This document shows, one piece after another, positions 17,392-62,257 of a stretch of DNA of 64,000 bases. The DNA is taken from positions 64,001-128,000 of the forward strand of contig CAVRCJ010000015.1 in assembly GCA_963719515.1 (NCBI GenBank), given 5' to 3'. Numbering within the stretch: position 1 is the stretch's first letter; each line of letters starts with the position of its first letter. The position numbers and the translations under genes are program-made. The notes under the pieces were generated by a model. The model had not been told where the DNA came from, did no database searches, and saw only the letters and a program-made list of their open reading frames with translations. Source of the stretch: an uncultured cyanobacterium (GTDB lineage Bacteria; Cyanobacteriota; Cyanobacteriia; CAKZMO01).

Positions 17392-17808
17392 TTACCGGGA
17401 TCGCCCGTCGAGCCACTGCTGCAAAATTAGGGCGGCGGCCTTGCGGTCGACAGCGGCCTTATTTTGAGAGGGAGACTGGCGGGCCGCTATCATCATCTCC
17501 TCGGCCTCAACCGAGGTCAGCCGCTCATCGACGTACTCTATGGGCAAGTTGAGGGCGGTGCTCAGGCGCTTGGCCAACCGCTGCACCTGCTTTGCCTGCG
17601 AGCCGATTTCCCCATCTAGGGTGTAGGGCAGCCCTACCACCAACACCTCCACCTGACGCTCTGCGGTCAGCTGTTTGAGTAGAGCCACATCTTGGTCAAA
17701 CGAGCGTCTCTCCAAAGTCATTAAGCCGGTCGCCAATAACCCCAGGCGATCGCAGCCCGCGATCCCGATGCGCTTACGGCCAATGTCAAGTCCTAATGCG
17801 GAGACCAC
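17392..17808 (-). CDS. ruvX: YqgF/RuvX nuclease
   Basis: LGLDIGRKRIGIA, VVGLP, DERLTS and D..AAALILQ motifs. Confidence 0.95.
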   Translation of the reverse strand: MVSALGLDIGRKRIGIAGCDRLGLLATGLMTLERRSFDQDVALLKQLTAERQVEVLVVGLPYTLDGEIGSQAKQVQRLAKRLSTALNLPIEYVDERLTSVEAEEMMIAARQSPSQNKAAVDRKAAALILQQWLDGRSR

Positions 17809-19133
17809 GCCCCGCCCTGCTCACCGCGACCGGTGCCGTAGTCACAGTCCCGTATCACACCCGAAGGATATCTAGAACCGGAATCTTGAGCCTGCTCGCG
17901 CCCGTCAGGAGAAGACGGCTCTGAAGATGGCGCAATGCCGTCCTCTTCGGGAGAAAGCTCTTCAAATAGCGATAGTCGCCCCGGAACGGGTTTGCGGCTG
18001 GGCTGAAGCCCCTGCAAAACTTCGACGAGCTGCAGGTTCTCTAGAGATACCGACTTAGTCTCCCGCATCTTATGCCACACGGAGCGGAACATCATCACCG
18101 TCTGCTGCTCTGGGGTTGCCCCAGTCTGCTTGAGGTAGGTTTCCCGCTCGGGCTGATAGTCAGAAGAGTCAAGCTCCAGCGACTGCTCCGGGTAGCTCTG
18201 CAGCAGCTGCGCCATTTGGGAGAGCAGCTCGGGATAGAGGTAAGTATAGGCGGGGTGAACCGTCAGCTGGGCGCTGTGGGGCTGACTGCCGTCTTTAGAA
18301 ATGCAGAGGTTGAAGTAACCGATGGCGGCTTTGCGCTGGGGCTCAAACACGTAGCCCTTCACGGTTTCTTGCTGAGCCATCAGCCGCTTAATGCTCGACA
18401 CTGCGCCTTGAGCGACACCAATGCTGAAGTCAGCAACATGACGGTCAAAAGCCTGCCGCACCAAAGGCGGCATGGATACGGTGTCGAGCTGATAGAGCAG
18501 TCGGGCGTCGGCGTTGCTCACCGGCCGGAGATTGGGAAGGTTGACGGGACGCTCTGATAAGGTGGCCAGAATCTGTGCGGAAAGGGACCAGTAGGTTTTT
18601 TGGGCTAGGGGCTGAAAGCCGTTGGTGCGATACAGGCCAATGCCGAGCTTATCGTTGACGTCCACCTCAACGAGCCAAATGCGGGCGCGCCAGATGATTT
18701 CCAGGCAGTGGCGCAGCAGCAGGGAGGCTGTATCTGTTGACAGACGCTTGCCCGGCAGCGCTTCAGCGCTAGACGAGCCGCTGTCGCGTTTAGCAAGGGA
18801 AGATCGCAGAGAATTGGTGGCCATGATGCGCTCGACGCGCCAGGTGGTGCTGGTTTTATTGAAGGGGGCAACTTGAACAAACCCTTCTAGCCCCTGCTGC
18901 CCTGCCGCAACGTAGGCGGAAAAGGCGTATTGAAACGGATTTGGAAACAGACTCAGGCACTTTAGAGGGCCATACCATTGGCGCACTAGTTCGAGCTGTT
19001 GCCCAATGCTGGCAGAGCGGCTGTAGCTCTCTGTTTCAAAGCCGCTCTCAGCTCGGATTAACCCATCAATCGCCTCTATATCGCGATAGTGAAGCGACCG
19101 AATCGTGAGGGGCGATTGAGGAGTTGGGGTCAT
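17793..19133 (-). CDS. Conserved cyanobacterial GNAT-fold N-acetyltransferase
   Basis: LYR.NGFQPLAQ.TYW and LPNL.PVSNADA.LLYQLDT motifs; overlaps the ruvX start. Confidence 0.75.
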   Translation of the reverse strand: MTPTPQSPLTIRSLHYRDIEAIDGLIRAESGFETESYSRSASIGQQLELVRQWYGPLKCLSLFPNPFQYAFSAYVAAGQQGLEGFVQVAPFNKTSTTWRVERIMATNSLRSSLAKRDSGSSSAEALPGKRLSTDTASLLLRHCLEIIWRARIWLVEVDVNDKLGIGLYRTNGFQPLAQKTYWSLSAQILATLSERPVNLPNLRPVSNADARLLYQLDTVSMPPLVRQAFDRHVADFSIGVAQGAVSSIKRLMAQQETVKGYVFEPQRKAAIGYFNLCISKDGSQPHSAQLTVHPAYTYLYPELLSQMAQLLQSYPEQSLELDSSDYQPERETYLKQTGATPEQQTVMMFRSVWHKMRETKSVSLENLQLVEVLQGLQPSRKPVPGRLSLFEELSPEEDGIAPSSEPSSPDGREQAQDSGSRYPSGVIRDCDYGTGRGEQGGAWSPH

Positions 19134-19157
19134 TAGATCACAGTTGAGTCAAGCTGG

Positions 19158-19549
19158 GTGACATCCTCCCGACGCTGACAGCAAGCTGTACAGCGCGGGC
19201 TTCCTCAGTGACTCCCAGCTATTGCCGGGACATATCCTGAGATAGGTTTATACTCCGCCTGATGCCCCACGGCAGAGTTTTGAATTTTCATCTCCGCGAG
19301 GGAGGATACGCACTATGTGTCGCAGATACATTTGCAAACTGAGGAACGGGTGACTTGCAGCTTTCGCCTACGGGCCCGTCACACTCTTTGCGGGGTGTAT
19401 CACCTTGCTATCTCTATCATACCAACTGCTAGCCTCAGCGCTGAGCGCACTATCCGCTGTGCATCATTTTGCGGGCGCACTTCGGCTAGCGCGACTCTCA
19501 TCCCGACGCTCACCCTAGCGGGTAGAGCGCGGGGCTTCCCGTCTAGTCG
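19158..19549 (-). mobile_element. 392-bp non-autonomous IS200/IS605 derivative, copy 1
   Basis: Left end nearly identical to the left end of the tnpB element at 46438, and about 120 nt of right end homologous to 47810-47920. Preceded by TTAG (CTAA at 19550-19553 on +), ends in TCAC, and differs from 61832-62223 at about 4 positions. Confidence 0.93.
19416..19424 (-). promoter_or_regulatory. Candidate extended -10 promoter inside the mini-element, pointing toward the right end
   Basis: TGGTATGAT (TGn plus TATGAT); identical in copy 2 at 62090-62098. Confidence 0.55.
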
Positions 19550-19641
19550 CTAAACCTTAGCCAAACCACATACTTAGAAGCTAGCACATTTGGCCTTTAC
19601 AGTCTTCTACGCCCTGGCCTTCACCGTCTACGTCCTAAGGC

Positions 19642-24260: not shown

Positions 24261-25680
24261 CTAGTTCGTGAAAGCCCCGCGCTGTACTCGGAGAGTCAGC
24301 GTCGGGATGTAAGCGAGCGAGTCACAGACGAGCATTTCTAGGGAGTAGCACTGCCCTTCCTAGAAATGCTACAATTGAGGTATGTTGACCTTGAACTACT
24401 CCTACCGAATTTATCCGTCTCTTGAGCAGGAAGCCCGCATGGTCTGTTGGCTTGAGATTTGTCGCGGCATCTATAACTATGCGCTGCGTGAACGCAAGGA
24501 CTGGATAAAGTCGAGAAGCTGCGTAGCTAATACCTGCTCGCTTCAATCGGAGTACATCATTGCGGCAAACGCGCCATATCCCGGTTACTACGACCAAAAG
24601 CGATCGCTGACGGCTGCTAAGAGAGTGCTTCCCCACCTGAAAGAAGTGCAGTCGCAGGTTCTTCAAGACGTTATAGGGCGGGTAGAAGCAGCGTTTGCGG
24701 CTAGGAAGGAGAGAGGTCACGGTTTCCCGCGCTTCAAGAAGTTTGGACAGTACCGCTCGTTCCTCTTTCCGCAGTTCAAGGAAAACCCGGTGACGGGCAG
24801 CCAAATCAAGCTGCCTAAGCTGGGCACGATGCGCATCGTTCTGCACCGCCCTATCCCTGATGGATTCAAAGTGAAAGACGGTGCGCGTCATCAAAAAGCA
24901 TTCGGGGTGGTACGCTACCCTATGCATTCAAGCCGATGTCAATGTGCCTGATGCTGTTCCCTATGGGGAGAGTATCGGCATTGACGTAGGGCTTGAATAC
25001 TTTCTGTCCACTTCCAACGGCTTGCAGGTAGAGCGCCCGCGCTTTTTCGGTAAGCTGCACCGCAAGCTTAAATTGCTGCAACGCAGACTGAAGAATAAGC
25101 AGCGGGGCTCGAATAACCGCGCCAAGCTGATTGGAAGGATTGGACGGGTACATGAGCAGATAGCAGCATGTCGCCTTGACTGGCAATTCAAGCTGGCCCA
25201 CAAGCTGTGTGACCAAGCCCAGATCATCTTCGTAGAAGACCTTGACTTTCGCATCATGGCGAAAGGGATGCTGGGTAAACACACTCTTGATGCTGGCTTG
25301 GGGCAGTTCATAAACCAGGTCTTGCCGTGGGTGTGCTTCAAGCGCGGCGTCTATTACGGCAAGGTTGACGCTTATGGTACTTCTCAGGAGTGCCCAGACT
25401 GCGGCGCTGTGGTCAAAAAATCGTGGGGCGATCGCGTTCATCGGTGTCATGAATGTGGGTCGCTCAAGCCGAGGGATATTGCCGCTGCTCAAGTCATCAA
25501 CGCCCGTGGAATTTCGGGTATTCAAATTGCCTGTGGAGCCGAGGTAGCGGGGATGTGGGAAGCCATATCTAGCCAACTGGCCCAGAAGCAGGAAACTCAT
25601 CGGGTGACCGATGAAGCCCGCGCTCTATCCGTAGGATGTTCGCAAAGCGCTTCCGCAGGAAGAACGTCGGGAGTATTCAC
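24261..25680 (+). mobile_element. IS200/IS605 element carrying tnpB only (IS1341-like)
   Basis: TTAG at 24257-24260; left-end hairpin CCCGCGCTGTACTC-GGA-GAGTCAGCGTCGGG; right-end hairpin ending GTCGGGAGTATTCAC at 25680. Confidence 0.9.
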
Positions 25681-25693
25681 TCCGCTTATCTAA
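24382..25693 (+). pseudogene. tnpB: TnpB RNA-guided endonuclease split by a +1 frameshift near 24874-24876
   Basis: N-half has YSYRIYP and GFPRFK; C-half has IGIDVG, FVEDL, a CPDCG..CHECG zinc finger and RDIAAA. Removing one A restores FKVKTVRVIKK. Confidence 0.88.
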
Positions 25694-46229: not shown

Positions 46230-46461
46230 GGTATTTCTCTTATGTTGCGTTCCGTAATCGGTAATGTGGAGAACCGTTTTACGGGTAGGCTGACGACATC
46301 ACGATGACCAGCCAAGGGTTGCGCTAACTGCCGTCAAACGCAGCTTTTTCCTATGGCGTGAGCATAGCACCTGCGAGCAATGCGGTTTGATACGATTTGA
46401 GCAATGTTGTCTAAACCTTGTCTAAGCTGCAGCTTAGCTACTAGACAGGAAGCCCCGCGCT

Positions 46462-46644
46462 CTACCCGTCAGGGTGAGCGTCGGGATGAGAGTCGCGGTC
46501 GTCGATGGGGCTCAATGCCCCGGAGACGGCCAAACTTCGGATGTACTCCCTAAGGACATCGTTGATAGTTCTTTCGGTCATCTCACAATACTTGTCAAGA
46601 TGCTGCTTTTCTCTGTCAGCGGCTCTAATAGTTATTTGCTGCAT
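46462..46644 (-). CDS. Ribbon-helix-helix (CopG-like) small protein inside the IS
   Basis: MQQITIRAADREKQHLDKYCEMTERTINDVLREYIRSL fits the beta-helix-helix pattern. Confidence 0.7.
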   Translation of the reverse strand: MQQITIRAADREKQHLDKYCEMTERTINDVLREYIRSLAVSGALSPIDDRDSHPDAHPDG

Positions 46645-46677
46645 GTCGTTCTGATGTCAATATGCTATCATTATTGC

Positions 46678-47874
46678 ATGAAAGTCACTTATCAGTACAA
46701 GTTGCGTCCAGCGGCTGAGCAAACGGTTACCATGACCCGATGGCTAGATAGGCTTCGGGCACAGTACAACTGGTTGCTGGCTGAGCGATTCGACTGGTGG
46801 GAGATGAACCGCTGTTCGGTCAACGCCTGCCCACTCACCTGTAGCCTTGCGCCACTCAAAGATAATCCTAATTACTGCAGCCAGAAGGCTAGCCTAGTAC
46901 CTCTCAAGCGAGAGCGACCCTGGTACAAAGATTTGCATTCGCAGGTACTCCAGGAGGTGACGAAGCAGGTAAAGCAGACGTTCGAGCGTTTCATCAAAGG
47001 TGATAGGAATGGTAAGCGTAGCGGCAAGCCTCGGTTCAAAGGCGCGGGGCGCTACAGGACGTTCACGTTCCCGCAGATGAAACCTGACTGCATCGATGGA
47101 AGTCGTATTACCCTGCCTAAGATTGGCCAGGTGAAGCTAATCCTTCATCGCCCGATACCTGATGGGTTTACTGTCAAAACGGCCAAGGTGACTCGCAAAG
47201 CAGATGGTTGGTATGTGAGCCTGTTACTGGAAAACAATGCCGTTCCGATGCTTACTCCGGATGTCGATAGGGCTAAGTCTGTCGGTGTTGACGTTGGGCT
47301 GAAGGATTTCTTGGTTACCAGTGACGGTGAGAGCGTTCCTATCCCTCAGTTCTTTCGACGCTCAGAGCGGCAGCTATCCAAGCTGCAGCGGCAGCTATCG
47401 AGACAGAAGAAGAGCTCTAACCGCTGGCGTAAGCAGGTGAATCGCATCGCCAAACTGCATCTGAAAATATCGCGTCAGCGTCGTGATTTCTTTTCTAAGG
47501 TGTGGGATTGGCTGTTTTCAAAGTACGATGTTGTCGCTCATGAAAAGCTCAACATCAAAGGACTTGCTCGAACCAGACTGGCAAAGTCAATCGCTGATGC
47601 CGCATGGGGTACATTCTTGGAGATAGGCTCTTTCAAAGCCGCGAAAGCTGGAAAGATGACCATCGCTGAGAACCCACGCGGAACCAGCATTGATTGCTCG
47701 GGTTGTGGTGAGCGGGTACCAAAGACGCTGGCCGATCGGGTCCATAGTTGCCCGTCATGCGGCTTAACGATCTGTCGCGACCACAACGCGGCTATCAACC
47801 TATTGAATAGGGCTGTGGGACATCAAGCCCTTAATCTCTCAGGAAATGTCTCAGCAGTAGCTGGGAGTCACTGA
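46678..47874 (+). CDS. tnpB: TnpB RNA-guided endonuclease with intact RuvC D-E-D
   Basis: TYQYKLRP, GKPRFK, GVDVG, HEKLN, CSGCG..CPSCG and RDHNAAIN motifs; start set at ATG 46678. Confidence 0.95.
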   Translation: MKVTYQYKLRPAAEQTVTMTRWLDRLRAQYNWLLAERFDWWEMNRCSVNACPLTCSLAPLKDNPNYCSQKASLVPLKRERPWYKDLHSQVLQEVTKQVKQTFERFIKGDRNGKRSGKPRFKGAGRYRTFTFPQMKPDCIDGSRITLPKIGQVKLILHRPIPDGFTVKTAKVTRKADGWYVSLLLENNAVPMLTPDVDRAKSVGVDVGLKDFLVTSDGESVPIPQFFRRSERQLSKLQRQLSRQKKSSNRWRKQVNRIAKLHLKISRQRRDFFSKVWDWLFSKYDVVAHEKLNIKGLARTRLAKSIADAAWGTFLEIGSFKAAKAGKMTIAENPRGTSIDCSGCGERVPKTLADRVHSCPSCGLTICRDHNAAINLLNRAVGHQALNLSGNVSAVAGSH

Positions 47875-47916
47875 GGAAGCCCGCGCTGTATGCGTAGCAT
47901 CAGCGTCGGGAGGATG

Positions 47917-50900
47917 TCACGCCGACCCATCGACGACGCGCTTCAGCGCTATCCAAAATCGGCTCCCTTGCCCCAGCACTGACTCGACGCCTACCCGGCC
48001 GCCCATGCGCTGGACGCCCCGCTTAACGATAGATAGCCCAATCCCGGTGCCGGCATAGACCTCAGCGCTGTGCAGTCGCTCGAAGGGTTTGAAGATGCGC
48101 GCTTGATGTCGGGGGGAAATGCCAATGCCGTTGTCCTCAACCCAGATCCGCACGTACTGTACATCTGTCTCGCAATCCCTCGACGCTGTGGGAACATCAG
48201 CCCAGATTTTAATCTGCGGCAGCGTGCCCGGTTCAACAAACTTCAAAGCGTTGCGAATCAGGTTGTTTAGCACTTGCTCTACGACGCTGCGCTGAACGTA
48301 AACCATGGGAAAGTCTTGGCCAACTTCAACCGTAGCTTGAGCGACCCGTAAAGTGGGCTCTAGAGCAATTAAGACTCTCTTCACGACAATACCTGCATCA
48401 ACACGCTGCAGATGAATCTCAGACCGCCCTAGGCGACTGTAGTTCAGCAGGTCTTGAATCAGCGTATCTAAAGTCTCAGCAGAGGTGGCCATGCGGCGGA
48501 TATACTCGTGGCCTAAATCATCAAGCGCAGAGCCGTAGTCTTCTTCCAACACTCGCGCAAAGCCTTGAATCGCCCGTAATGGCGCCCGCAAGTCATGGGC
48601 AACGGAGTATGAAAAAGATTCTAGCTCCAGATTGGCTTCCTCTAGCTTCTCAGTCCGCTCCTGCACACGCTGCTCTAGAGTGATGTTGAGCTCGTGAAGC
48701 TTCTGCTCACCCCGATTGCGGACAATCGCCGCTGCCAGGCAGTTGGTGACCGCCTGCAAAAAATTAACGTCATCTTGAGTAAAGTCTTGAAGTCGGCGGG
48801 AATGCACGCCTAAGATGCCGAAGGGCCCCTCATTCCCTCCAATAATGGTGCTCATGCCGCTAATGACCTGGTGCTCAATGAGCAGGTCCGGTCCGGTAAA
48901 TCGAGGCTCCCTGCGCAGATCCTTGACCACGACGGGATGTTGAGATGAGAGCGTGTAGCCTGCTTGGGAGTCCCCCTCGCTGCTAACTGTCGCCTTGCCG
49001 ACGAGACCAGGCTGCCAGCCTACGCCAGATCTCAGCAGCAGCGCCTGGCCATCGGGCAATAGCTCGAGCACTTTGCAGTAGTCTACGTCTAGGCTAGCCG
49101 CAAGCATCTGAGTTGCTTGATCAAACAGCGCGTCTAAACTCAGTCCCGATAGCGCGGTCTGACTCAGCTGTGCGACAACCGCCTGCTGCTCTAGGCGACT
49201 GGCAAGCGATGCCTCGGCCTGCTTCTGCGCTGTCACATCGGCAGCCATGGAAATCACGAGCCTGGCGCCACTATCAATTTGGCCTAGAGGCGCTGAGCTA
49301 AACAGCCAGGTCCGCCGCTCGCCGCCCTTAGTTCTCACCTCAAATTCGCCTTCATCAACCCGTCGGTTAAGGTCATAGAGGCGATTGATCCAGTCCAAAA
49401 CGTCGCTTTGCTGTTCACCGTAGGCCCGCTCTGTCCAGTCGCTCAAGGTCTGTAGCTCGCTGGCCTCATATCCCGTAATGTCGGTTACCGTTCGGCTCAA
49501 CCGAAAGATTTCCCCGTCTTCCCCGTGAATGATGATGGGGAAAGGGGCTTCGGTGACCGCCCGCCGAAATCTCGCTTCGCTCTCCCTCAGCTTTGCCTCT
49601 GCCTGCTCGCGCTCCCCAATCTCCTGCTGCGCCTGCTGATAGAGCATGGCCTGCTGAACAACTAGGCTAATCTGCGTTGAAAGCTGCTTTAAAGATTTGA
49701 TTTCAAGCGGCTGCCACTCGCGAGGCGCTCTGCAGTGATGGGCAATGAGCAGTCCCCAGACCTCAGTGCCCTGCAAGATGGGGACAACCAAGTTCGCTTT
49801 GACCTGCAGTGACGCTAGAAAATCGACGTAGCACGGGGTAAGCTCACCGCTGTGAATATCGGGAATGACTTGCAGCTGTCCGGACTTGTATTGCTTAATA
49901 TAGCTGGCCGACAGGCAGGGATCGCAGAACGGCAGGCTTTGGAGAGAATTCCACTGGGCATCCACCGATTCAGACAGGACAACGCCATCGTCGGGCGTCT
50001 GAAGCTGAAAGATGACGACCCGATCGGTCTGCAGGAACGCTCGCACTTTACTCACGGCGCTCTGCAGCAGTTGGCTCAGGTCTAACAGCGGCAGATCGCT
50101 GCCCCCAACGGACCATCTCCGAATCAATTGAGTGATCTCCATCGCTAGCCGCTCAGACTCCAGCATCCGGTAGCGCTCGATATCAGCTTGCTTAGACGGC
50201 GTGATATCAGCGACCGTACCCAGCATCCGCCCCATCGGGCGATCGCCATCGGGGTAAAATCGACCCTTACTGCTGAGCCAGTGGATAGAGCCGTCTGCCC
50301 AAACGGTGCGAAACTCTATATCGCACTGGGTTTGGTTTTGCAGAGACCGCCGGACAGCCTGCTGCAGGGCGGCACGGTCTTCTGCATGCACCCGCTTTAA
50401 AAGTGCGCGGTAGGTAGACAGCACCTCTCCATCAGTTAGCCCCAAGAATGTGCTGGCCTGCCCCGAGTAGAGCAGTCCGCCGCTTGAGCGCCACTCCCAG
50501 GCGCCCATTTGGGACGCGTCCAAGGCAAGCCACAGACGCTCGTTACTTTGCCAAAGCTGCCGTTGCAGGTTTACCTTCTCGACGGCCTGCTCGATGCTGC
50601 GCTGTAGCGATAGCGGCGTAATTTGACCCTTAACTAAATAATCTTCTGCCCCCGCTTTGAGCGTCTGCGCGGCTAGGAATTCGTTTCCCTGACCGGTGAT
50701 CATGATTAGCGCGGGCATTTGGTCTTTCAGCTGTACTTTGAGTTCAGTCAAGAACTCCAGTCCGTCACAGTCGGGTAGACTGTAGTCCAGCAGCACCACA
50801 TCAGGTTGAGCCTGCTGGCACAGCGCCAGCCCTAGCTCGCCCAGATCTGCCTCAATGATCGTACAGTCTAGCTTCGTATTCCGCTTCAGGTAGCGACGAT

Positions 50901-54340: not shown

Positions 54341-54408
54341 ACCTTTGCTAAAGTTCTGCCCCATTTCGGGAGATGTCTGGTGTATTAGAGGTAGCTACTG
54401 GCTGTTAG

Positions 54409-54857
54409 CTAGTTCGTGAAAGCCCCGCGCTGTATGCGCAGCATCAGCGTCGGGATGTAAGCGAGCGAGTCGAGGTGCGCCCTTGACTGGATGCCGAAGG
54501 CGGCAATTAAGGGCAGCGCCGAGGCGAGCAAAGGGTACAATTGAACCAAGCTCAAACTATTTCATGGCGGCGGCCTGCTATCCTGACACAAACGTACAGC
54601 CCTTAGCTGGTGAACAGTGCAGACGGTAGAAAACGTAGCTGGAAATTGAATACTCGTCACTGTCTGGGGTTGGTCATTGCCTGGACATTAAACAAATCGC
54701 CTGTCGATGGGATCTAATCGGGGTTGCACGGCTTGCTGCGTAACTAGACAGGACCAGATGAAGCAGGAAACCTTCTTGCGCGGCATCCATTAAATTGTGG
54801 TGCGTGAGCCAAGAAGCCCACGCTCTATCTAAAAGATGAGCGTCGGGAGTATGTCAC
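54409..54857 (+). mobile_element. 449-bp non-autonomous IS200/IS605 derivative
   Basis: TTAG at 54405-54408; left end CTAGTTCGTGAAAGCCCCGCGCTGTA..CAGCGTCGGGATGTAAGCGAGCGAGTC shared with 24261; right-end hairpin ending GTCAC; no long ORF. Confidence 0.9.
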
Positions 54858-57854: not shown

Positions 57855-57909
57855 AAAAAAAAATCCCCAGCTATGAAAGCCGGGGATTGGAATCAGGGTG
57901 CATCTACCA
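57855..57909 (-). ncRNA. nsiR1: NsiR1-like small RNA
   Basis: TGGTAGATGCACCCTGATT leader (NsiR1 seed as recalled) followed by hairpin AATCCCCGGCT-TTCAT-AGCTGGGGATT and T9. Confidence 0.75.
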
Positions 57910-60869: not shown

Positions 60870-61835
60870 ATGACCACATCTATGCCAAACCCTAACCTCA
60901 GCGTCCATCACACCATCCATTCCCACCAGTCTCACTGCGGCTGGGACCATTCCCTGCCGCCGCAGCTGACGATCGCCCCCGGCGAAACGGTGGAGATGGA
61001 GCTTAACGACGCCTCGGGGGGGCAGCTTACCCTAGACTCCACCGTGGCGGATGTCGACGCCTTCGACTTTGGCCGCACTAATCCGGTCACCGGCCCCATC
61101 TATATCGAGGGGGCTGAGCCGGGGGATGTGGTGAAGCTATTTATCCAGAACTTCAGCCCCTCCGGCTGGGGCTGGACCGCCATCTTCCCCGACTTCGGCC
61201 TGCTGGCGGACCAGTTCCCCGACACCGCTCTGCAGCTCTGGCGCTACGACGTAACGGCTAAGGGGGCGATCGCCGAAGGTCTGAGCGCCCGGATCCCCCT
61301 GAAGCCTTTCGCGGGCACCATCGGTCTGGCCCTGGCGGAACCGGGTCACCACAGCGTGGTGCCGCCCCGGCGGGTAGGGGGCAACATGGACATCCGCGAC
61401 CTGTCTTCGGGCAGCACACTGTACCTGCCGGTGGAGGTGGCCGGGGCGCTGCTCTCCATCGGCGACAGCCACGCGGCCCAGGGAGATGGAGAGGTGTGCG
61501 GCACGGCCATCGAGAGCCCGATGACGGCGGTGTTCACTATAGACCTGCTCAAAGACCACCCGATAAAATACCCCCACTTCGAGACCGCCGGTCCCGTCAC
61601 CCGCCACCTAGACGCCAAGGGCTACTACGTCACCACGGGCATCGCCCCCGATTTGATGATCGCTACCCGGGAGGCGGTGATGGCCATGATCGACTGGTTG
61701 GGTAAGGCCCACCAGATGGACGCCGCTGAAGCTTACATGCTGTGCAGCGTCTGCGCCGACCTGAGGGTCAGCGAAATTGTAGACAAGCCCAACTGGGTGA
61801 TGTCCTGCTATTTGCCCAAAATCGTGTTTGAGTGA
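60870..61835 (+). CDS. Acetamidase/formamidase family protein
   Basis: NPVTGPIYIEGAEPGD, GGNMD, GDSHAAQGDGEVCGTAIE and AYMLCSV motifs. Confidence 0.93.
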   Translation: MTTSMPNPNLSVHHTIHSHQSHCGWDHSLPPQLTIAPGETVEMELNDASGGQLTLDSTVADVDAFDFGRTNPVTGPIYIEGAEPGDVVKLFIQNFSPSGWGWTAIFPDFGLLADQFPDTALQLWRYDVTAKGAIAEGLSARIPLKPFAGTIGLALAEPGHHSVVPPRRVGGNMDIRDLSSGSTLYLPVEVAGALLSIGDSHAAQGDGEVCGTAIESPMTAVFTIDLLKDHPIKYPHFETAGPVTRHLDAKGYYVTTGIAPDLMIATREAVMAMIDWLGKAHQMDAAEAYMLCSVCADLRVSEIVDKPNWVMSCYLPKIVFE

Positions 61836-62223
61836 CATCCTCCCGACGCTGACAGCAAGCTGTACAGCGCGGGCTTCCTCAGTGACTCCCAGCTATTGCC
61901 GAGACATATCCTGAGATAGGTTTATACTCCGCCTGATGCCCCACGGCAGAGTTTTGAATTTTCATCTCCGCGAGGGAGGATACGCACTATGTGTCGCAGA
62001 TACATTTGCAAACTGAGGAACGGGTGACTTGCAGCTTTCGCCTACGGGCCCGTCACACTCTTTGCGGGGTGTATCACCTTGCTATCTCTATCATACCAAC
62101 TGCTAGCCTCAGCGCTGAGCGCACTATCCGCTGTGCATCATTTTGCGGGCGCACTTCGGCTAGCGCGACTCTCATCCCGACGCTCACCCTGACGGGTAGA
62201 GCGCGGGGCTTCCTGTCTAGTCG
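61832..62223 (-). mobile_element. 392-bp non-autonomous IS200/IS605 derivative, copy 2
   Basis: Near-identical to 19158-19549; CTAA at 62224-62227; supplies the TGA stop of the acetamidase gene. Confidence 0.93.
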
Positions 62224-62257
62224 CTAACGAGGTCTCCCCGTATCAGCTTGGCAACGG

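Follow-up and report, generated by a model that had tools for sequence, protein, structure and literature searches.

We analysed a stretch of 64,000 nucleotides from the genome assembly of an uncultured cyanobacterium (GCA_963719515.1, contig CAVRCJ010000015.1, positions 64,001 to 128,000; hereafter the window), which carries two minus-strand copies of a 392-bp repeat at 19158-19549 and 61832-62223. The repeat, here named PATE-A, is probably a non-autonomous, protein-less derivative of the IS200/IS605 family, of the kind known as PATE, that carries an omega-RNA, is moved by the transposase TnpA and is served by the nuclease TnpB in trans. It can be read directly from the DNA that PATE-A retains both subterminal hairpins of the resident IS200/IS605 family, together with its TTAG target, and the stand-alone omega-RNA of PATE-A is probably transcribed from a promoter of its own. 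An earlier note on the window had described the two copies as self-promoted guide cassettes that borrow TnpB and TnpA and amount to a dispersed guide array. The absence of protein-coding content, the shared ends, the presence of the helper genes, the omega-RNA-like fold and the -10 box all agree with the first part of this description, but the array could not be upheld.

The repeat unit and its ends

The two copies in the window differ by four mismatches over 392 nt and lie in unrelated flanks, as had been noted, and the similarity between them ceases exactly at both ends of the unit. A genome-wide BLASTN count, which the earlier note had proposed, was run on the 5.28-Mb assembly and returned 53 full-length copies at 97-100% identity, far above the two noted. 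Fourteen of the 53 match the consensus at every position, and two copies differ by 3.8 nt on average. As judged from the copies themselves, the spread of PATE-A to these 53 sites, mostly between genes, is recent.

All 53 copies have TTAG directly on their 5' side, with a T at position -5 in 47 of them, and the same tetranucleotide precedes the left end of the tnpB-bearing elements in 19 of 19 cases. The right terminus of every copy reads ...GGATGTCAC, and the DNA that follows is unrelated from copy to copy. Given that no base is conserved at positions 1-6 of the right flank across the 53 copies, the insertions show no target-site duplication. The element is missing at the orthologous position of copy 1 in two sister genomes (G003 and G002), with intergenic DNA too diverged for an exact TTAG-plus-flank joint to be recognized.

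Both ends of the unit carry an imperfect hairpin of the form GCCC(C)GCGCT...AGCGTCGGG with one unpaired T, and both were matched by a covariance model. The unit has subterminal imperfect palindromes of the IS605 type and no terminal inverted repeats, which is the arrangement of a PATE. Subterminal hairpins are the structures that TnpA recognizes in IS608. In the account of Meers et al. (2023; PMC10055086), imperfect hairpins of such a kind are recognized by TnpA in the IS200/IS605 family.

Coding content and descent from tnpB

As far as its reading frames tell, the 392-bp unit is protein-less, as PATEs are. Its sense strand contains stops in all three frames, and the sole open reading frame (ORF) of at least 60 aa is an antisense frame of 78 aa (19317-19553), which was ruled out as a gene because it has no Pfam match and two 1-nt insertions break it in G002.

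The sense strand holds a decayed C-terminus of TnpB together with the original stop codon (tblastn E 1e-6, 18/37 identities), and the unit therefore descends from a tnpB element. This remnant spans about 95 nt before its stop (unit positions ~250-345) and differs from the resident TnpB. A homology of about 120 nt to the 3' end of tnpB had been claimed earlier; it is found by tblastn and by the covariance model described below (~120-145 nt), whereas at the BLASTN level it is confined to 66 nt at the left end of the unit and 85 nt at its right end, which are 91-98% and 86-87% identical, respectively, to the resident elements. BLASTN searches for the origin of unit positions 69-307 gave no match in the genome outside the copies, in the resident elements (at word size 7) or in the tnpB elements of relatives. 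At the tip of its right-end hairpin, the unit has ACAGC-TT-GCTGT, a variant borne by tnpB elements of other Phormidesmis-like cyanobacteria (loci L047, L050 and L059), not by the resident one.

The resident family and its helper proteins

The family that shares these ends comprises about 19 tnpB-only elements of 1483 bp and three autonomous elements of 1.8 kb, which carry both tnpA and tnpB, the Y1 transposase gene being divergent. The left end of the 1.8-kb Y1_Tnp elements is 98% identical to that of PATE-A over 57 nt, and by direct reading the tnpB-only element has at its left end the same 60 nt as the majority sequence of the 392-bp family. One of the tnpA genes lies at C10:313500-313862. 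For the tnpB ORFs of this family, tblastn recovered 17 full-length sequences at 96% identity or more and five others that are either disrupted or truncated at a contig end. Pfam assigned the domains OrfB_IS605, TNB zinc-ribbon and HTH_OrfB to TnpB and Y1_Tnp to TnpA, and the RuvC residues of TnpB were assessed by eye from the translation. A predicted Y1 (HUH) transposase with matching ends is accordingly available in trans from three Y1_Tnp genes, as expected for a PATE. One tnpB-only element lies within the window. The earlier note had called it intact and homologous at its 3' end to the 392-bp unit; the homology was borne out, and the limits of the element were corrected to 46438-47920.

The omega-RNA scaffold

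An alignment was made of the 3'-terminal 160 nt of eight tnpB elements, namely the one in the window and seven relatives at 69-81% protein identity. RNAalifold predicted four helices in these 3' ends: P1, a hairpin with a conserved loop; P2, which encloses P3; and P4, the right-end hairpin. A covariance model (R1) was then built from the eight tnpB 3' ends alone, without any PATE sequence. Such a model had been suggested as a check of the earlier claim, and it matched copies 1 and 2 over 160/160 positions at 105.8 and 104.8 bits (E 4e-22 for copy 1) and the copy in G002 at 95 bits. The match terminates at the last base of the unit, which means that the scaffold adjoins the right end and that the guide would come from the flank. 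Rfam returned no match for 19100-19600 even at E 10.

In an alignment of 11 sequences, standard pairs occupy 98% of the cells, as compared with 36-44% after the partners had been shifted by 1-3 columns, and 11 of the 36 pairs show two-sided changes, in a count that covers few relatives, takes its three PATE rows from a single lineage and uses an alignment fitted to the model. P1, which the earlier note had not mentioned, appears to be the most telling helix for an RNA function. Three of its six pairs are altered on both sides in the PATE rows (AU>UA, GC>CG and GC>UG) with the pairing kept; it lies outside the hairpin recognized by TnpA, and in the tnpB elements it is constrained by codons for R-A-V-G-H/C-Q-A. 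By eye, the pairing of P1 is also retained, with further changes, in the PATEs of genomes G008, G052 and G290.

The loop of P1 (G-R-Y-R-U-C) can form a pseudoknot with GAUGUC, which occupies positions -8 to -3 relative to the guide, and for this pseudoknot 95.5% of the cells are paired; the variation here is all one-sided and compatible. Another long-range helix proposed by RNAalifold, between the GAUGUC of the ORF and the 3' tail, was rejected, as it is broken in two of the eight tnpB sequences, including the one from the window, and the P1-loop pseudoknot fits better. The predicted combination of a conserved multi-stem fold and a guide-adjacent pseudoknot is the structure by which an omega-RNA is recognized.

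Two helix differences between tnpB and the unit had been quoted as changes that preserve pairing. Both are real. The difference between ATGC-GTA-GCAT and ACAGC-TT-GCTGT sits in the tip of P4, and since TnpA reads this hairpin as DNA, it is no witness for an RNA. The other, CTCAGC/GCTGGG versus CYCGGC/GCTGGG, corresponds to P3, where the changes are one-sided (G-U versus G-C, A-U versus G-U). The T/C difference between copies 1 and 2 in this helix is a polymorphism of the family (44 T : 9 C).

The promoter-like box, the leader and the upstream hairpin

The sequence TGnTATGAT had been reported upstream of the scaffold, and it is indeed present, as the extended -10-like box TGGTATGAT at 19424-19416, a position from which transcription is predicted to start near 19409, as the earlier note had it. 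In sister genomes, the box reads TGCTATACT in the full-length copy of G002 (95% identity) and TGGTATAAT in a copy of G004 that is cut by a contig end (86% identity). Between these two genomes and the present one (G000), 3 of the 9 positions of the box vary, with the TG and T1, A2 and T6 of the -10 consensus kept, and in each genome TGnTAnnnT occurs a single time and at the same place. A comparable single box, about as far from the left end, was found in the protein-less elements of G008 and G052 and in two further PATE families of this genome, C and D (described below), where it reads TGnTAGAAT. The element of G290 has no TGnTAnnnT box, and family B has only GGGTACAAT or the poor match TGCTATCCT. 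A sigma-70 site and a weak terminator-like hairpin on the plus strand inside the unit, both from the promoter scan considered in the next section, were given no weight.

The box is followed by a leader of about 130 nt, for which the earlier note had seen no counterpart in tnpB. This holds in our searches: BLASTN found no match outside the copies, and none was present in any tnpB element examined. The predicted leader helices (helices 8-11 of the alignment) keep 100% pairing across the three genomes compared, where one change is two-sided and five are one-sided, a weak indication of a conserved structure.

Between the left-end hairpin and the box lies a long imperfect hairpin (unit positions 60-122) with 19 pairs, of which three show two-sided changes among three genomes, and 93% of the cells are paired. 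By eye, its sequence block (…GTGCGCCC… ATGATGC/CTGGATGCC …GGGCAGCGC…) recurs in families B and D and is missing from tnpB-bearing elements. This hairpin could act as an insulator against read-in transcription, as an operator, or as a fold of single-stranded DNA.

Functional omega-RNA or relic

The simplest competing explanation is that PATE-A is a plain PATE without an RNA function, the 3' part of which is kept for TnpA-mediated transposition, while the fold is an undecayed relic and the -10 box a leftover or a product of chance. Several findings weigh against a functional omega-RNA, and some of them fit a plain PATE directly. The 53 copies, at 97-100% identity, are too young and too alike for selection within the genome to be judged, and their 38 variable columns are distributed across the whole unit. 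The core and the rest of the unit diverge similarly from the copy in G002 (4.2% for the core against 6.3-8.5%), the core being only slightly better conserved, without a clear difference. P4 serves TnpA as DNA, and so does its tip variant, which is common to the tnpB elements L047, L050 and L059. The scaffold also departs from that of the resident TnpB itself, in that P1 is rewritten, 6 nt have been added to the linker between P1 and P2, and identity over the 3'-terminal 85 nt is 86%; that the resident TnpB would accept this scaffold is therefore assumed. The case for transcription of PATE-A is the -10-like box, and a strict sigma-70 scan, which requires a -35 element, reported no promoter on the minus strand of the unit, the box having been passed over because it has no -35. 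By our own estimate, the chance of one TGnTAnnnT in ~270 nt is about 1 in 4, which is not rare. The narrow sampling behind the pair count given above points in the same direction.

Nevertheless, a plain PATE would leave much of the scaffold unaccounted for. P1, P2, P3 and the pseudoknot all lie outside the right-end hairpin, and all have been kept though the coding constraint of tnpB is gone. P1 has been rewritten by three two-sided changes instead of decaying, and the same type of P1 is present in protein-less elements of three other genomes and at 11 metagenome loci. We consider a plain PATE unlikely on these grounds, though deserving of attention, and favor an element with an omega-RNA.

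Insertion sites and outward transcription

The context of the 53 insertions was counted with a crude call of ORFs of at least 150 aa after the element had been removed in silico. Seven copies lie inside an ORF, 23 have the start of a same-direction ORF within 400 nt of their right end, and 12 face a convergent ORF, two of which are also among the 23; 15 are in none of these contexts. It can be speculated from such positions that PATE-A is a mobile outward-facing promoter with its chief impact on host genes, the read-through of which past the right end switches on downstream genes or produces antisense RNA. The end of copy 1, 24 nt before the ATG of the minus-strand ORF 17793-19133, would suit such a role, as would the excess of 23 same-direction starts over 12 convergent ones. 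This bias is mild, however, and insertions between genes and upstream of them are simply tolerated; the retention of a complete omega-RNA fold with its pseudoknot would moreover go unexplained. As an explanation in its own right, a mobile promoter therefore seems improbable to us. As a side effect it is compatible with an omega-RNA element and no true alternative to it, and outward transcription could affect neighboring genes in this way. For genome annotation, the 392-bp repeats are to be treated as mobile elements that immediately precede many genes and may harbor a promoter reading outward.

At copy 1, the native upstream region of ORF 17793-19133 has been displaced by 392 bp, and an outward transcript would enter the gene. 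Copy 2 was inserted exactly at the stop codon of ORF 60870-61835 (61830-61836), where CTAA, the complement of TTAG, held the TAA. Its right end now supplies a TGA stop for this ORF, in which the last residue alone is changed. Since a stop triplet, TAG or TAA, is part of TTAG/CTAA, the ends of genes may often serve as targets.

Guides, targets and a proposed role

The would-be guides at the right flanks of both copies had been read correctly in the earlier note, and each of them is the DNA that adjoins the insertion. We compared the 16-mers of the 53 guides with the sequence following each of the 24,460 TTAG sites of the genome: none agrees within 2 mismatches, 4 do at 3 mismatches and 49 at 4. 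When TTAG was not required as transposon-associated motif (TAM), the near matches in the genome were scattered, and none adjoined TTAG. The proposed dispersed guide array, in which the 53 cassettes would form a guide repertoire of TnpB against other DNA for defence or gene regulation, is hardly credible in view of these 0/24,460 sites and the scattered TAM-free matches, in a comparison that took in the genome but no phage or plasmid collections, all the more since the guides are unchosen and merely consist of whatever DNA flanks the insertion.

Without a second TTAG match in the genome, the sole cognate target of each guide is the element's own vacated TTAG-plus-flank joint, which is recreated on excision. 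A PATE-A that acts to keep itself in place, and not as a targeting array, is the best reading of these data. In the corresponding model, the Y1 transposase TnpA would mobilize PATE-A in trans as single-stranded DNA. The internal extended -10 promoter would give rise to an RNA of ~250 nt, made up of the 130-nt leader and the 120-nt omega-RNA core, which would run across the right end into 16-20 nt of flanking DNA. The resident TnpB could take up this RNA in trans and cut the TTAG-plus-flank sequence, which is present only after excision. In a polyploid cyanobacterium, the cut would be mended from a chromosome copy that still holds the element, and PATE-A, a parasite of both TnpA and TnpB, would ensure its own retention in this manner. 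Polyploid cyanobacteria may favor such elements.

Other protein-less families and the distribution of the P1 block

Besides PATE-A, the genome contains at least three protein-less families whose ends are of the same type (B, C and D), with at least 22 copies together. A copy of family B lies in the window (Table 1), whereas family C (~413 bp) has four copies, as identified by pattern, and family D one. These families resemble PATE-A in the type of TnpA hairpin, the ...ATGTCAC end and the lack of a protein. Their RNA bodies are different and longer, in elements of 413-449 bp, and their right ends are like those of other TnpB lineages, not of the 22-copy family that PATE-A resembles.

The P1 of PATE-A follows the motif CTCTGCS-GTGGGKCATCA-SGCGGAG, then TATAAAC. 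In 401 cyanobacterial genomes, this motif was detected in four: 53 copies in the present genome and one each in G002, G052 and G290. It was also found at 11 metagenome loci, eight of which could be bounded as elements of 400-502 bp, the other three being cut by a contig end, and up to 1600 nt around these 11 loci held no TnpB homology. The motif was met solely in protein-less elements, by a search pattern that was itself derived from protein-less elements and is biased toward them. Even so, the count is in keeping with guide-RNA-only lineages of long standing between which modules are exchanged.

A block of 42 nt around P1 is shared between PATE-A and protein-less elements of 315-502 bp in other cyanobacteria and in metagenomes, with 93% identity to that of G052, while P2-P4 and the right end differ. 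PATE-A joins this P1 block to a P2-P4 region and right end like those of its host's tnpB family. The sharing suggests modular exchange between guide-RNA-only elements. It is a decidedly doubtful proposition that PATE-A represents an old line of guide-RNA-only elements whose evolution is not tied to any nuclease gene. If this were true, such elements would be hyperparasites able to adapt their 3' half to the TnpB/TnpA family of each host. Their RNAs would vie with those of the transposon itself for the nuclease, and a further role, for example in stability, regulation or insulation, would fall to the conserved leader and the upstream hairpin.

Other features of the window and the genome

In the tnpB-only element of the window, the position of tnpA is occupied by a small divergent ORF (46474-46650, minus strand, 59 aa) that is ribbon-helix-helix-like by eye and has a weak match to DUF6290 (E 0.0035). 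An IS200/IS605 element of another lineage lies at 24276-25680 on the plus strand. Its end hairpins were weakly matched by the covariance model, and its tnpB, which is probably frameshifted, consists of two frames that overlap (24382-24951 and 24881-25693). In the whole genome, tblastn at E 1e-5 or better gave about 100 TnpB segments with 27%-100% identity, which represent several lineages, and there are 14 Y1_Tnp matches. The only Rfam match at gathering score in the window is nitrogen stress-induced RNA 1 (NsiR1) at 57856-57909 on the minus strand, with 63.5 bits against a gathering threshold of 39.

Table 1. Coordinates of PATE-A, its predicted parts and related elements. Positions refer to the window unless a locus is named.
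Feature	Position	Strand	Remarks
PATE-A copy 1, whole element, 392 bp	19158..19549	-	left end 19549; right end ...GGATGTCAC, last base 19158
TTAG target/TAM of copy 1, directly 5' of left end	19550..19553	-	CTAA on + strand
Left-end subterminal hairpin, GCCCCGCGCT...AGCGTCGGG, one unpaired T; presumed TnpA recognition site	19502..19533	-	hairpin-only covariance-model match, 19.8 bits; alignment helix 3
Long imperfect hairpin between left-end hairpin and -10 box	19428..19490	-	unit positions 60-122; alignment helix 5
Extended -10-like box TGGTATGAT	19416..19424	-	unit positions 126-134; predicted start ~19407-19410
Leader, ~130 nt	19278..19409	-	unit positions ~141-272; no tnpB counterpart
Omega-RNA-like core	19158..19277	-	unit positions 273-392
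P1	19277-19271 with 19259-19253	-	core helix
P2	19242-19237 with 19208-19203	-	core helix
P3	19230-19224 with 19219-19213	-	core helix, inside P2
P4, right-end hairpin	19199-19168	-	core helix
Pseudoknot	19266-19261 with 19165-19160	-	P1 loop with pre-guide bases
Would-be guide of copy 1, CCAGCTTGACTCAACTGTGA	19138..19157	-	in 5' leader of ORF 17793-19133
PATE-A copy 2, whole element	61832..62223	-	TTAG 62224-62227 (minus-strand reading); would-be guide 61812-61831
Resident tnpB-only element, 1483 bp	46438..47920	+	TTAG 46434-46437; presumed trans supplier of TnpB
tnpB in tnpB-only element	46678-47874	+	OrfB_IS605, TNB, HTH_OrfB
Own omega-RNA region of tnpB-only element	47761-47920	+	covariance model 179.3 bits
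PATE-B copy, 449 bp	54409-54857	+	TTAG 54405-54408; ends ...AGTATGTCAC; 17 genome copies
P1-block relatives	L069 (G052:C25) 279-465; L100 (G290:C16) 1334-1648; L109-L119		

Comparison with known systems

The idea of protein-less omega-RNA elements is already in print, and PATE-A, which leaves current understanding unchanged, is a clean and fairly ordinary example. A literature search for cyanobacterial elements of this kind returned nothing beyond general papers, which is no proof of absence. The genome presents a well-resolved instance, in nature, of the three tiers of parasitism that have been proposed for IS200/IS605 elements, with three suppliers of transposase, about 19 nuclease-only elements, and 53 plus at least 22 guide-RNA-only copies, and it offers a convenient system for studying the homing of protein-less elements by TnpB in trans. 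PATE-A could also show how far an omega-RNA scaffold may drift from that of the nuclease itself and yet stay usable.

The 2021 experiments of Altae-Tran and colleagues reportedly covered IscB effectors. As summarised in PMC10691335, Altae-Tran et al. (2021) reported mobilised omega-RNAs that stand alone and function in trans when the effector is compatible. In that summary they are like PATE-A in having neither an effector nor a transposase and in residing in genomes that hold effector loci; they were reported to act in trans (PMC10691335), whereas PATE-A is known here from its sequence.

The definition of PATEs goes back to work on Haloquadratum walsbyi (Dyall-Smith et al., 2011; PMC3119063). 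These archaeal elements were reported at a time when omega-RNAs had yet to be recognized, and many of them are far shorter than PATE-A (down to 52 bp), with no room for a guide-RNA scaffold.

The structural counterpart of the PATE-A core is the omega-RNA of ISDra2, for which Nakagawa et al. (2023; PMC10097598) describe a 116-nt scaffold with four stems and a pseudoknot between positions -5..-3 and -103..-105, together with a 5' region that is disordered and dispensable. The predicted core of PATE-A is alike in its length (~116-120 nt), its four stems and the pairing of pre-guide bases with a segment ~100 nt upstream. It has no detectable sequence similarity to the ISDra2 RNA and differs from it in the TAM (TTAG versus TTGAT) and in being borne by a protein-less element, the ISDra2 RNA being encoded with tnpB (PMC10097598).

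A close precedent is that of Geobacillus stearothermophilus, in which gene-less, PATE-like minimal IS200/IS605 elements encode omega-RNAs (Meers et al., 2023; PMC10055086). The homing model put forward in the same work, in which TnpB cuts the vacated TAM-plus-flank site (PMC10055086), is the one that we apply to PATE-A. On the description given there, both kinds of element are protein-less, have ends like those of a resident IS605 element, would provide an omega-RNA to a TnpB acting in trans and would be moved by a TnpA in trans. PATE-A differs from them in its cyanobacterial host, its sequence family and its TAM, TTAG. Also, unlike the G. stearothermophilus case as far as it is described, the protein-less copies of PATE-A (53) outnumber those of tnpB (~22), which in turn outnumber those of tnpA (3), and the element has a 130-nt leader and a P1 that differs from every tnpB-borne copy seen.

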